Positions 54,996 through 59,136 of a DNA stretch of 64,000 bases are shown here, one piece after another. The stretch is from a virus (lineage: Duplodnaviria > Caudoviricetes). Location: IMG/VR virus record IMGVR_UViG_3300031555_004710, positions 96,001 through 160,000 of that record; one strand, given 5' to 3'. The notes below the pieces were generated by a model. That model made no database searches, had not been told where the DNA came from, and saw only the letters and a list, made by a program, of their open reading frames with translations. Positions within the stretch are counted from its first letter, which is position 1. Every line of letters starts with the position of its first letter. Both the position numbers and the translations under genes were made by a program.

Positions 54996-55490
54996 TTGAT
55001 AATGAAAATATATACCGATGGTTCATTTAATCGAAAACTATCTAAAGACAGTACAGCTTACGCTGCTGTAATAGTTACTGATGAAAATGAATCTGAATAT
55101 ATTGTAGATATTGTCTATGGTGTTATAACTGACCCAAATTATACTGGTATGTGGAATGTTGGTGGAGAAATTTGGGCAGTATTAGCTGGATTAGATTATG
55201 CTATCAATAAGTATAATCCAAAAGACATTTCCATTTACTATGATTATATTGGTCTTGGTAAATGGGTTAATGGGGAATGGAAAACTAAAAATCCAACAAC
55301 TGAAAGTTATTCTAGGTACATTAAAAATAAAATGTGTGAGCATGAGTTATCGTTTAATAAGGTAATAGGACATTCAAATGTTCTTTTAAATGAGCTTGCT
55401 GATAAATATGCGAACTATGGCACTACGACTTATTTAGAGAGTGGAAAAGTTTCAACTCTTATAACTGGATTACGAGTTCCTCGTAAGTAA
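54996..55490 (+). CDS. rnhA: Ribonuclease HI
   Basis: YTDGS, NVGGE, YDYIG, KVIGHS, NELAD. Confidence 0.9.
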   Translation: MIMKIYTDGSFNRKLSKDSTAYAAVIVTDENESEYIVDIVYGVITDPNYTGMWNVGGEIWAVLAGLDYAINKYNPKDISIYYDYIGLGKWVNGEWKTKNPTTESYSRYIKNKMCEHELSFNKVIGHSNVLLNELADKYANYGTTTYLESGKVSTLITGLRVPRK

Positions 55491-55653: not shown

Positions 55654-57846
55654 ATGAAAATAATTAAACGTGATGGAACTGAAGCAATTTTTGATAAGAA
55701 TAAAATAGAAATTGCTATCAGTAAAGCAAATTTAAGTGTAAATAAATCCGACAGATTAAGTATTGATACTATAAAATATATTGCAGATGAGATAGAAACT
55801 AAGTGTGAATCTTTAGGTAGAGCACCATCTGTTGAAGAAGTTCAAGACATGGTAGAAAAAGAACTACTACGCTTTGATAAATATGAACTTAGTAAAAATT
55901 ATATTACTTATAGATATCAGCGAGCAATGACACGCTCATCTAATGCTACGGATGAAAGGATCTTATCATTAGTTAATCAATGTAATGAAGATATTAAACA
56001 AGAAAATTCAAATAAAAATCCTACAATTATTTCTACTCAAAGAGATTATATAGCTGGAGAAACTTCCAAAGATATTTCTGATAGATTATTACTCCCTGAA
56101 GATGTAGTGGAAGCTGATAGAGAAGGTATTTTCCATTTCCATGATAAAGACTATTTTATTTGTAGGGAATATAATTGTTGTCTAATAAATTTGGAAGACA
56201 TGCTACAAAATGGTACTGTTATAAGTGAAACAAAAATAGAAAAACCTCATAGTTTTGCTACGGCATGTAATATTGCAACTCAGATTATAGCACAGGTTGC
56301 TTCTAGCCAATATGGTGGTCAGAGCGTTTCTCTTACTCACTTAGCCCCATTCGTAGATATTAGTCGTCAAAAAATTAGAAAGATTGTAGAAGAAGAGCAA
56401 AGAATTGCACATAATACTGTATATGGTGGAGAATTAGTAGATTTTTCAGATAGTATGAAAGCTGCTATAGATAATATTGTAGAAAAACGAGTACGCGAGG
56501 AAGTTAAAAAAGGTGTACAAACTATACAATATCAAATATTGACACTTCTTACATCAAATGGTCAAACACCATTTGTTACCGAATTCATGTACTTAGGGGA
56601 AACTGATGATCCACAGGTAAAGGAAGATTTGGCGTTAATTATAGAAGAAACTCTTAATCAAAGAATGCAAGGAGTAATGAATGAAAAAGGTGTTTGGATA
56701 ACTCCTGCATTTCCTAAAATAATTTATGTATTAGAAGAAGATAATATACACCCAGATAGTAAATACTATTATTTGACAGAGTTAGCTGCTAGGTGTACTG
56801 CTAAACGAATGGTTCCTGATTATGTTTCTGAAAAGAAAATGAAAGAATATAAAGAAGGAAACTGTTTCCCTCCTATGGGTTGTAGAAGCATGTTATCTCC
56901 TTGGAAAGATGATAATGGTAATTATAAATTCTATGGCCGTTGTAATCAAGGCGTTGTTACGATTAATCTAGTTGATGTAGCATTATCATCCAATAAAGAT
57001 TTTGATAGTTTTTGGAAAATATTTGATGAGCGACTCGATTTATGTTATAAAGCATTAATGTGTCGTCATAATAGATTAAAAGGTACAGTTTCAGATGTTG
57101 CTCCAATTTTATGGAGACATGGTGCAATTGCAAGATTGGATAAAGGTGAGAAAATAGATAAACTTCTATATGGAGGATATTCTACAATCTCTCTAGGTTA
57201 TGCTGGATTATACGAATGCGTTAAATACATGACTGGAAAATCTCACACTGATTCGGATGCGACCCCTTTTGCCTTAGAAGTAATGCAGTATATGAATGAC
57301 AAATGTGATAAGTGGAAAAAAGAAACTAATATTGGATTTGCAATTTATGGAACTCCAATAGAATCCACAACTTATAAATTTGCAAAATGTTTACAAAGAA
57401 GATTCGGTATTATACCAGGAATAACAGATAAGAATTATATTACAAATAGTTATCATATCGACGTTAGAGAAAATATAGATGCTTTTAGTAAGCTAGAATT
57501 TGAATCTAAATTCCAACATCTTTCTACAGGAGGAGCAATTAGTTATGTGGAAGTACCTAATATGCAAAATAATATTCCTGCTGTATTGGAAGTAATGAAA
57601 TTTATATACGAAAATATAATGTATGCAGAATTAAATACTAAATCTGACTATTGTCATGAATGTGGATATGATGGAGAAATCCAAATAGTTGAAGAAGATG
57701 GAAAGCTTATCTGGGAATGCCCAAATTGTAATAATAGAGATCAAGAAAAAATGAATGTTGCTCGTCGTACTTGTGGTTATATTGGTTCTCAATTTTGGAA
57801 TCAGGGTAGAACTCAAGAAATTAAAGATAGAGTATTACATTTATAG
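55654..57846 (+). CDS. nrdD: Anaerobic ribonucleoside-triphosphate reductase
   Basis: ATP cone (IIKRDG), HFHDKDY..NCCL, PPMGCRS, CHEC..CPNC, glycyl-radical RRTCGYI. Confidence 0.97.
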   Translation: MKIIKRDGTEAIFDKNKIEIAISKANLSVNKSDRLSIDTIKYIADEIETKCESLGRAPSVEEVQDMVEKELLRFDKYELSKNYITYRYQRAMTRSSNATDERILSLVNQCNEDIKQENSNKNPTIISTQRDYIAGETSKDISDRLLLPEDVVEADREGIFHFHDKDYFICREYNCCLINLEDMLQNGTVISETKIEKPHSFATACNIATQIIAQVASSQYGGQSVSLTHLAPFVDISRQKIRKIVEEEQRIAHNTVYGGELVDFSDSMKAAIDNIVEKRVREEVKKGVQTIQYQILTLLTSNGQTPFVTEFMYLGETDDPQVKEDLALIIEETLNQRMQGVMNEKGVWITPAFPKIIYVLEEDNIHPDSKYYYLTELAARCTAKRMVPDYVSEKKMKEYKEGNCFPPMGCRSMLSPWKDDNGNYKFYGRCNQGVVTINLVDVALSSNKDFDSFWKIFDERLDLCYKALMCRHNRLKGTVSDVAPILWRHGAIARLDKGEKIDKLLYGGYSTISLGYAGLYECVKYMTGKSHTDSDATPFALEVMQYMNDKCDKWKKETNIGFAIYGTPIESTTYKFAKCLQRRFGIIPGITDKNYITNSYHIDVRENIDAFSKLEFESKFQHLSTGGAISYVEVPNMQNNIPAVLEVMKFIYENIMYAELNTKSDYCHECGYDGEIQIVEEDGKLIWECPNCNNRDQEKMNVARRTCGYIGSQFWNQGRTQEIKDRVLHL

Positions 57847-57858
57847 GAGATTGATATT

Positions 57859-58416
57859 ATGTATTATGGAGCAATTAAAAAATATGATATTGCAAATGGT
57901 CCAGGTGTAAGAGTGTCTCTATTCGTATCTGGATGTGAGCATTATTGCAAAGGATGTTTTAATTCTGAAGCTTGGGATTTTTCATATGGAAATGAATTTA
58001 ATTATAAAACTCGTGATGAATTATTTACAGCTTTAAATGCTAAATATATCAGAGGTTTGACAATTCTTGGTGGAGAACCTATGCATCCACAAAATCAATT
58101 ACAGATTTTAGATATACTTAAAGATTTTAAATTTATATATGATGAATCAGATAAAGATTTATGGATATATACTGGTTATCTATACGAAGATTTGGTTTCT
58201 AATAAAATTGGTAAATATTCAGAAGAAATTCTTAAGTATACTGATGTACTTGTAGATGGTCCTTTTATACAGGACTTAAAAGATATTGGACTAAACTTTA
58301 GAGGTTCTAGGAATCAAAGAATTATAGATGTTCAGAAATCTATTTCAAGTGGAGAGGTTATTCTACATCCATTAGGTATTGGTGATTCTGATAAATACAT
58401 TAAAAAGGAGAAATGA
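57859..58416 (+). CDS. nrdG: Anaerobic RNR activating radical-SAM protein
   Basis: NGPGVRVSLFVSGCEHYCKGCFN, LGGEP, VDGPF, RGSRNQR. Confidence 0.97.
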   Translation: MYYGAIKKYDIANGPGVRVSLFVSGCEHYCKGCFNSEAWDFSYGNEFNYKTRDELFTALNAKYIRGLTILGGEPMHPQNQLQILDILKDFKFIYDESDKDLWIYTGYLYEDLVSNKIGKYSEEILKYTDVLVDGPFIQDLKDIGLNFRGSRNQRIIDVQKSISSGEVILHPLGIGDSDKYIKKEK

Positions 58417-58417
58417 T

Positions 58418-58870
58418 ATGAATTTATGTGAGTTATATAAAGATACCCAGATTACAGTACGAGCTACACATACAGGTCACATTTATCATGGTCCTATAAA
58501 GACTATCTATAGAGTATTTCACGATATTCCAATTCAAGTATTTTATAATGGAGAATGGAATTCTGCAAGAATTATAGGAATACCTAATGAGAGAAGGATT
58601 GTAAAAATCAATAATAGTCTAATGTGTTCATTTGATTTACCATTGGTAAAAGATGATTCAATAGTTATAGTAAAGGATTTGAGTGGTAGTACTGTTGATG
58701 GAAATATGATTTCTGAAAAGTATATTTCTCATTTCACTGATGGAAAAATAAAAATAGATTCAATAGAAATTACCGATATTCATAGTGAATGGCTATTTGG
58801 AGTTGAATTTATTGATTCTAAAAATAAGTTCTATACTTTAAGTAATGGATTCATTATTTCGGCAAAATAA
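58418..58870 (+). CDS. Stand-alone degenerate Hint (intein-like) domain protein
   Basis: CELYKDTQITV (block A-like), FYNGEW, IKIDSIE..EWLFGVEF (block F-like), FYTLSNGFIISAK (block G-like without HN); own RBS aaggag. Confidence 0.65.
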   Translation: MNLCELYKDTQITVRATHTGHIYHGPIKTIYRVFHDIPIQVFYNGEWNSARIIGIPNERRIVKINNSLMCSFDLPLVKDDSIVIVKDLSGSTVDGNMISEKYISHFTDGKIKIDSIEITDIHSEWLFGVEFIDSKNKFYTLSNGFIISAK

Positions 58871-58871
58871 A

Positions 58872-58912
58872 TTAAATAAGAGTATGAATAAAATTCATAC
58901 TCTTATTTAATT
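58872..58912. terminator. Bidirectional terminator
   Basis: ttaaataagagtatgaat-aaa-attcatactcttatttaa. Confidence 0.8.
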
Positions 58913-58917
58913 TTTAA

Positions 58918-59136
58918 TTATTCTTCGATGGTTTCGTCGTTATCTTCAACAACTTCTTCCTCTTCTTCATCTTCGATAGTTTCTTCAACTTCAGCAGAAG
59001 AATCAATATCTTCTATAGGTGCACCATCTTTTGTGAATACATTTGTAGCAGGTGTGTAAGGATACATACCTCTAGTAGATGCTGCTGCTTTTTTAGCGTT
59101 TTCAATAGCTTCTAACATTCTAGGATGCTTTGCCAT
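58918..59136 (-). CDS. Small protein with very acidic tail
   Basis: 72 aa; EEEEEVVEDNDETIEE; RBS gaggg. Confidence 0.7.
   Translation of the reverse strand: MAKHPRMLEAIENAKKAAASTRGMYPYTPATNVFTKDGAPIEDIDSSAEVEETIEDEEEEEVVEDNDETIEE

Follow-up and report, generated by a model that had tools for sequence, protein, structure and literature searches.

A Stand-Alone, Predicted Splicing-Dead Hint Gene Next to nrdD-nrdG in an Uncultured Phage and Evidence for Its Descent From an NrdD Mini-Intein

Organization of the Locus

The window analyzed here is a stretch of 64,000 nucleotides from a 236,671-bp IMG/VR virus record with a CheckV completeness of 94%. The RecD-like helicase of its operon was 32–36% identical to its nearest named matches, which belonged to jumbo phages of Bacillus (vB_BpuM-BpSp) and Staphylococcus; smaller phages of Serratia, Erwinia, and Bordetella also matched it at ~32% identity. 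Judged from its sequence, the source is an uncultured jumbo phage without a close cultured relative.

The forward strand carried an RNase H gene (54996–55490), nrdD (55654–57846), nrdG (57859–58416), and a small gene, P0001 (58418–58870), which was assigned to the Hint fold from its ORF and translation, AF2, Foldseek, and profile matches to NrdD inteins. The RNase H gene was a window ORF, called by gene order and by RNase_H at the equivalent position in related loci, and served as the upstream synteny anchor. nrdD encoded 730 aa with ATP-cone, NRDD, and glycyl radical regions (Pfam NRDD, E 3e-192), and nrdG encoded the activating enzyme of 185 aa (Pfam Fer4_12, E 3.7e-47).

The frame of P0001 opened with an ATG at 58418, closed with a TAA at 58868–58870, and encoded 150 aa (MNLCELYKDTQITV...FYNGEWNSARII...KIKIDSIE...EWLFGVEF...FYTLSNGFIISAK). 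The probability of 150 open codons arising by chance at 28% G+C was ~4e-7, and the remaining five frames of 58418–58870 contained 9–21 stops each. An RBS (AGGAG, 58406–58410, + strand), read from the sequence, lay within the 3′ end of nrdG, 7 nt 5′ of the Hint ATG; the TGA stop of nrdG (58414–58416) was 1 nt ahead of this start, and the two genes were read in different frames. Behind the gene, a terminator scan detected a two-way hairpin (58869–58913, both strands) with a 20-pair stem, common to the convergent downstream gene. The latter (58918–59136, − strand) encoded a very acidic product of 72 aa without a Pfam family. It was used as the downstream synteny anchor, and phmmer detected its homologues 3′ of the Hint gene or nrdG in L002, L004, L007, L010, L012, L015, L016, and L101–L103.

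The NrdD of the window was of the T4-like MGCRS type and uninterrupted, with the motif PPMGCRS at Cys410 (codon 56881–56883). The site at which relatives carry an intein fell between 56880 and 56881 of the window nrdD; this equivalence was placed via the shared VVTINL anchor and the intein of locus L030 (PCMG/C...SHN/CRS; here and below, slashes in such strings mark the insertion junctions). The whole 236,671-bp record contained this single nrdD, and a Pfam Intein_splicing scan of the record detected no canonical or Pfam-detectable intein. The initial annotation, made from the letters and their ORFs, had described a 150-aa ORF with its own RBS just after the nrdG stop, a shared terminator, and an uninterrupted adjacent NrdD. 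Each of these features was recovered at the coordinates above, and all of the peptides it quoted were present in the translation.

Hint Fold and Relationship to NrdD Inteins

The AF2 model of P0001, built on a 25-row alignment of which two rows were real inteins, was confident (pLDDT 96.4, pTM 0.90) and superseded an earlier run on a 3-row alignment (pLDDT 52). The best 50 Foldseek matches of this model in the PDB were all inteins or BIL domains. The VidaL intein 6vgv gave the best TM values (0.73/0.75), and the BIL structures 2lwy and 6y75 were also found among the matches. An independent ESM Atlas single-sequence model of P0001 matched intein-bearing viral NrdD, DnaB, and terminase proteins.

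Pfam and PHROGs scans assigned P0001 to no family, and Pfam Intein_splicing (PF14890) left it unmatched at E values up to 1. tblastn of P0001, P0020, and P0025 against 50,697 deposited phage genomes gave no match, a PDB sequence search with the 3-row profile returned chance matches only, and an IMG/VR scan with the close-clade alignment produced 28 pattern matches with no relative among them. An exhaustive search of 1.84 billion proteins with a profile of three free members returned 33 matches (E up to 0.001). About 24–25 of them were stand-alone proteins of 146–173 aa, all in metagenomic phage contigs. Five others were long proteins in which the match fell within an inserted Hint region, called an intein by Pfam in all but P0030, and four of these were NrdD (Pfam NRDD). 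The insert had the form ...SLSxC/CF...THN/CRL and lay immediately ahead of the catalytic cysteine, at the equivalent of Cys410 of the window NrdD. In P0030, Pfam detected only two NRDD halves flanking the insert, and P0029 was a fragment with Intein_splicing only, which ended in the same ...THN/CRL junction as the NrdD matches. The NrdD intein in P0033 (residues 80–418) ended in Ser-Asn, not His-Asn, and was inserted one residue earlier (LSN/C...TSN/CCRL) than the others (LSxC/C...THN/CRL). Three weak long matches of the 33 (P0032, P0034, and P0035) were unrelated proteins and were discarded.

A profile built solely from the free members matched solved inteins (gp41-1, E 4e-5). It also matched the NrdD mini-inteins of loci L100–L104 at 123–137 bits, a strength equal to that of family members. 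These mini-inteins were 33–37% identical to the free members, which were 18–66% identical among themselves (median 30.5%). Taken together, the AF2, Foldseek, ESM Atlas, and profile results established the Hint fold and the intein ancestry of P0001. The mini-intein reading of the initial annotation was supported by the three structural comparisons, and the kinship that it had proposed to NrdD inteins in particular was supported by the profile matches and the identity to the mini-inteins.

Loss of the Splicing Residues

The residue counts were taken from an alignment of 24 free members with 14 NrdD inteins, in which intein positions were scored in 11. Cys1 of block A, a Cys in NrdD inteins, corresponded to Cys4 of P0001 (58427–58429, +); it was kept in 14 of 24 free members and was the only splicing residue retained in P0001. 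The TxxH of block B was replaced by S71-F72-D73-L74 (58628–58639, +), which Cys70 immediately precedes. Its Thr position was Ser in 14 and Thr in 5 of the 24 free members (Thr in 10/11 NrdD inteins), and its His position, Leu74 in P0001, was His in a single free member (11/11 NrdD inteins). In former block F, W125-L-F-G128 (58790–58801, +) stood in place of Y-V-Y/F-C, and the F:4 Cys, present in 11/11 NrdD inteins, was found in none of the free members, 20 of which had Gly (Gly128 in P0001). Former block G ended in S148-A149-K150-stop (58859–58870, +), replacing the His-Asn and the +1 Cys. The penultimate His (Ser148) was kept in 1/24 free members and 10/11 NrdD inteins, the terminal Asn (Ala149) in 2/24 and 11/11, and the His-Asn pair in 0/24 free members. 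The missing residues represent a derived loss, because they are present in other inteins, among them the outgroup and those with solved structures.

P0001 had three residues ahead of Cys4 and a stop directly after K150, and it had no exteins; no C-extein followed the domain. Across the family, 0–13 residues preceded the Cys position, and 0 to ~10, mostly 1–2, followed the position of the intein's last residue. All free members except P0026, which ran ~10 residues beyond, ended within 3 residues of that position. P0013 and P0014 shared a conserved 13-residue leader (M-G/S-I-C-G-L-x-x-D...; L012:1876–1914) ahead of the Cys1 equivalent, which resembled a short N-extein.

As far as the sequence tells, the lack of a His-Asn pair and of a +1 residue rules out Asn cyclisation as well as transesterification to a +1 nucleophile and the ligation of exteins, and with the block B His and the block F Cys also missing, protein splicing and C-terminal cleavage of P0001 are chemically impossible. 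Lacking the block B His and having only 0–13 leader residues, the free proteins would have no evident use for an N-S acyl shift. The initial annotation had already called the gene splicing-dead, free-standing, and without exteins. The alignment and the gene's own start, stop, and RBS agree with this, and the motif replacements that it listed hold after a correction of register, which sets TxxH against S71-F-D-L74 and H-N against S148-A149, followed by K150 and the stop.

Genomic Context of the Hint Gene

Contigs were available to locate ten family clusters, and all of them lay in one syntenic backbone in the order of DnaB ... RecD/PIF1-like helicase - (DHH) - RNase H - variable part - Hint - terminator - convergent acidic gene ... 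dUTPase - NAD ligase; the convergent gene was present in every one. The variable part took three forms. nrdD-nrdG was located 5′ of the Hint gene in the window, L002, L003, L011, L004, and L014; the order was glutaredoxin - Hint - nrdD - nrdG in L007; and the Hint gene followed RNase H directly or nearly so in L010, L012/L018, and L015/L017. The Hint gene therefore adjoined nrdDG in 7/10 clusters, and nrdDG was absent within 10 kb of it in the other three. In these three, which were seen as contigs only, nrdDG may lie elsewhere in the genome.

Two unrelated nrdDG cassettes were found beside the Hint gene, a T4-like MGCRS type with an ATP-cone (window and L007) and a CCRL type (L004 and L014). 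The NrdD and NrdG of the two types were ~23–26% identical (NrdGs ~26%), and the cassette type did not track the Hint tree. A survey covered 80 further viral loci that carry a related nrdG, of which 72 also have nrdD; it detected a Hint-like ORF in none, and all positive controls were recovered. This indicated that the Hint gene is a constant part of the replication operon in this phage clade and does not generally accompany nrdDG.

These observations bear on the idea of the initial annotation that the protein is an accessory of ribonucleotide reductase, which would bind the NrdD or NrdG of the phage or its host and regulate, protect, or help to activate the anaerobic reductase. The adjacency to nrdDG in seven clusters, the overlap or 1-nt spacing of the upstream stop and the Hint start (window, L003, L004, and L011), and the descent of the domain from an intein once folded within NrdD are all in keeping with it, and intein-extein contacts have been described for the RadA intein (PMC4513877). 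However, three clusters retained the Hint gene without nrdDG within 10 kb, the cassette was swapped between types whose NrdD and NrdG are only ~23–26% identical while the Hint lineage was not, and none of the 80 other nrdG loci had a Hint-like gene. We regard this role as unlikely. A functional module coupled to nrdD-nrdG, as first proposed, was not supported by the same three observations; the neighborhood survey upheld a local link to nrdDG but not an obligatory one. A predicted complex of NrdD(96–730), NrdG, and Hint, with alignments for each, gave an ipSAE of 0.00 in two runs without controls, which is no verdict on binding.

A Hedgehog-like fusion of NrdG and Hint by frameshifting was also considered and rejected; in relatives, the genes had ordinary overlaps of 1–8 nt, or the Hint gene followed RNase H after gaps of 6–21 nt, and no slippery context was common to them.

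Several neighboring genes deserve mention. The nrdD beside the free Hint protein P0017 (L004:1359–5493, +) was split into called pieces of 187, 261, and 85 aa; the first gap held a 360-aa HNH-containing ORF, and the splits are probably group I introns. The same contig also encoded a tubulin homologue. In the phage-like contig L011, a formate/nitrite transporter gene (PF01226; 669–1292, +) was located directly 5′ of nrdG; one class of NrdD uses formate as its reductant. L014 and L007 had glutaredoxin genes ahead of nrdD or the Hint gene. A small Cys-rich ORF after nrdG in L103 (9983–10210, +), with a matching ORF in L101 (6154–6486), occupied the position of the free Hint gene in relatives and matched the ferredoxin:thioredoxin reductase beta-chain (L103, E 5.6e-5). 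The glutaredoxin and ferredoxin:thioredoxin-reductase-like neighbors suggest redoxin-dependent NrdD cassettes.

Intein-Bearing Relatives and the Origin of the Gene

The JGI loci L101/L102/L104, which represent one type, and L103 were syntenic with the Hint-bearing loci, and L101–L103 had the order DHH - RNase H - nrdD - nrdG - convergent gene. Their CCRL-type nrdD contained a real mini-intein of 148–153 aa with C1, TDDH, WVFC, and THN/CRL. After nrdG in the intein-bearing L101–L103, neither a free Hint ORF nor a remnant of one was detected (best tblastn E 0.025). The NrdDs beside the free Hint gene in L004 and L014 were also of the CCRL type, had no intein, and were 72–74% identical to the exteins of the intein-bearing P0023. 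An intein was likewise found in an IMG/VR phage at L030:200–3487 (+), where a T4-like NrdD of 1096 aa carried a LAGLIDADG intein at the catalytic Cys (PCMG/CVDG...YSHN/CRSFL); it used the same site as the CCRL-type inteins, but its similarity to the free family was weak (11.5 bits).

In the phylogeny, whose root rests on one distant outgroup, a branch with support of 95/83, recovered in 97% of bootstrap trees, had the NrdD inteins on one side, and a single clade of all free members was compatible with the data (AU p 0.56). The descent of P0001 from an NrdD mini-intein is well supported, since syntenic relatives carry a real mini-intein in nrdD at the same locus. The origin suggested in the initial annotation, an intein that left nrdD and was kept as a separate protein, is in line with these intein-bearing relatives, and the placement of the inteins in the tree agrees with it.

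All four nrdDs beside a free Hint gene (window, L004, L007, and L014) were intein-less, and the two syntenic intein-bearing locus types had no free gene or remnant. At 4 vs. 2 loci, the mutual exclusion of an intein in nrdD and a free gene is at most suggestive. Here, the free Hint gene and the NrdD mini-intein could be seen as alternative states of one element at one locus, with the free form acting in trans: it might guard the intein-less nrdD allele from invasion, or it might poison the splicing of intein-bearing NrdD precursors of competing phages, an inhibitor role that the initial annotation had also raised. Inteins are able to form domain-swapped dimers (PDB 5bkh), which would fit such an interaction. 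However, the counts are tiny, the inteins of L101–L103 are mini-inteins without an endonuclease and so are not actively homing, and the Hint gene persists in phages whose locus has no nrdDG. Moreover, we know of no way for one intact, folded Hint domain to interfere with a second. A role in conflict between intein states thus appears quite improbable.

Selection and Conserved Residues

All of the ~24 free members were open, at 146–173 aa and 18–66% identity. In the closest pair with DNA available (L003 vs. L011), the Hint proteins were 63% identical with a dN/dS of 0.11, and the adjacent nrdG was 73% identical with a dN/dS of 0.13; further close pairs gave Hint dN/dS values of 0.2–0.35, all of these figures being rough because dS was saturated. 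The Hint gene evolved faster than its neighbors, as seen in L004 vs. L014 (29% identity vs. 50% for nrdG). Contigs with identical proteins (L004–6, L007–9, and L012–13) differed by 0–1 nt. The gene is kept by purifying selection in ~24 diverged lineages, and the dN/dS check suggested with the initial annotation spoke against neutral decay.

The loss of the splicing residues and the faster evolution of the gene (63 vs. 73% and 29 vs. 50% identity in the two pairs above) would also be expected of a functionless relic, a decaying intein pseudogene carried along with the operon, and a decayed, nearly extein-less intein has a precedent in Arthrobacter Arth_1007 (PMC3196547). Against this, the 24 lineages, at 18–66% identity, are all open at 146–173 codons in DNA of 28% G+C, the closer pairs have dN/dS values of 0.11–0.35, the residues still suffice for a confidently predicted Hint fold, and the RBS and the operon position are kept. 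We find the relic reading hardly credible.

Family-wide, Phe34 was invariant, and Trp47, Leu141, and Gly144 were nearly so; all are residues of the structural core. That only core residues are conserved across the family agrees with a scaffold that changes its surface in step with a partner. DNA binding was considered as a role; the mostly mildly acidic character of the family (pI 4.9–6.3 in 18/24) does not point to it. In the close clade, the best-conserved residues were Cys4, Cys70, Ser71, Asp73, WLFG, and IISAK, which line the old active site; among its 10 members, Cys4 and Ser71 were invariant, and Cys70 and Asp73 nearly so.

This pattern raises the question of a new chemistry, in which Cys4, Cys70, Ser71, and Asp73 of the Cys-bearing clade would form a redox disulfide, a metal site, or a residual thioester-forming center. 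Besides the conservation of the four residues, Cys4 and Cys70 are the sole cysteines in P0001, P0002, P0004, P0005, and P0006, and glutaredoxin genes are nearby in L007 and L014. Cys4 is missing in 10/24 members, however; cysteine is absent from P0017, and there is a single one in each of P0015, P0020, and P0021. Because of such members, cysteine chemistry cannot be the function of the whole family, and as an explanation of the gene it is very improbable, although within the close clade the conservation at the old active site could reflect a new chemistry, a metal site, or a redox site instead of plain binding.

Proposed History and Significance

We consider it likely that P0001 is a stand-alone, catalytically dead Hint protein that derives from a mini-intein at the catalytic Cys of NrdD and was exapted once for a non-catalytic binding role. 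In the simplest reading, the coding sequence of the intein would have escaped a single time, long ago, from nrdD to the end of the operon; its splicing chemistry would then have been lost while the gene was retained for another use, and the nrdDG cassette beside it would later have been exchanged, moved, or lost. The present protein would be a small, non-enzymatic binding protein with a fast-evolving partner, acting within a replication and nucleotide-metabolism module. It would have no strict need for the phage's own NrdD or NrdG, an obligatory role with which is disfavored by the nrdDG-less contexts and the cassette swaps. Where the phage has no NrdD, that of the host could be the target.

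Inteins are usually viewed as selfish inserts that keep splicing or vanish. To our knowledge, the only well-known domesticated inteins, yeast HO and WHO, retained a nuclease, and the only described extein-poor dead intein, Arth_1007, was regarded as junk. Here, a bare mini-intein without host protein or chemistry persists under selection across many phage lineages, and it would be the first viral example of a Hint splicing domain put to use as a protein of its own. In the literature on free-standing, domesticated, or remnant inteins and on phage NrdD inteins, we found no published description of a free-standing Hint family. The family is invisible to Pfam and PHROGs, and its members would be annotated as hypothetical or, wrongly, as inteins. 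Related phages display three states, namely an intein in nrdD, a free gene with an intein-less nrdD, and a free gene alone, so that the route from parasite to host gene is directly testable. If the proposed action in trans against intein-bearing alleles were true, P0001 would be the first 'anti-intein' protein of intein origin.

Comparison With Known Systems

The class 1 NrdD mini-inteins (Clostridium phage c-st and D-1873 NrdD; L100–L104) are closest to the free Hint protein. They have the same fold, a length of 148–153 aa, 33–37% identity to it, and the common blocks FYNGEW, D/E-W-V/L-F, and YFTLxNG, and they are found in the same phage lineage at the same locus. They differ in being in frame inside nrdD and in keeping Cys1, TxDH, the block F Cys, and THN plus Cys, whereas P0001 has its own start, stop, and RBS, no exteins, and only the first Cys. 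The Hint domains of BIL and Hedgehog/Hog proteins also share the fold with P0001. However, they are parts of larger proteins in which both the N-terminal nucleophile and the block B His are retained, and they cleave or transfer an N-terminal cargo; P0001 has no cargo, and its block B His is replaced by Leu.

The yeast HO and WHO elements are domesticated, free-standing, intein-derived genes, and WHO elements adjoin the gene to which they relate (Coughlan et al., 2020, eLife 9:e55336, via PMC7282806). Like P0001, they are free-standing genes of intein descent that do not splice. Unlike P0001, which is a phage protein, they are eukaryotic, keep a LAGLIDADG endonuclease, have gained a zinc finger, and function in DNA cleavage; P0001 consists of the Hint domain alone (150 aa), its endonuclease site carries no insert, and Pfam finds no nuclease in it. 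Arth_1007 of Arthrobacter sp. FB24 is an intein pseudogene, nearly extein-less with flanks of 52 and 14 residues, in which the block B His is missing and splicing is no longer possible; only one copy, in decay, exists within a prophage remnant, and it was judged functionless (Tori and Perler, 2011, PMC3196547). P0001 resembles it as an extein-poor, intein-derived ORF without the block B His and without splicing, but the free Hint genes form a family of ~24 diverged members under purifying selection.

In gut Jug phages, stand-alone 'Intein_splicing' ORFs have been reported between nrdD fragments (PMC12880540). The likeness lies in the gut jumbo phages, nrdD, and separately called intein-similar ORFs. 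The Jug phage ORFs, however, are located between fragmented pieces of nrdD, match Pfam Intein_splicing, and may belong to interrupted genes, whereas P0001 follows an intact nrdD-nrdG pair and does not match that family. In BFVD, four small uncharacterized phage proteins of 143–172 aa (I6WBU2, A0A1S5RCV4, A0A8S5TJS4, and A0A2Z3EFP0) have Hint-like predicted folds; the sources of such proteins are Aeromonas phage CC2, Lactobacillus phage P1, and uncultured Myoviridae. Each may represent another Hint gene that stands alone or a piece of an interrupted gene, and stand-alone Hint ORFs may therefore be commoner than recognized. By the features that define these classes, P0001 is neither an intein, nor a BIL or Hedgehog domain, nor an endonuclease of the HO/WHO type, and in its probable mode of action it is like no described intein relative.
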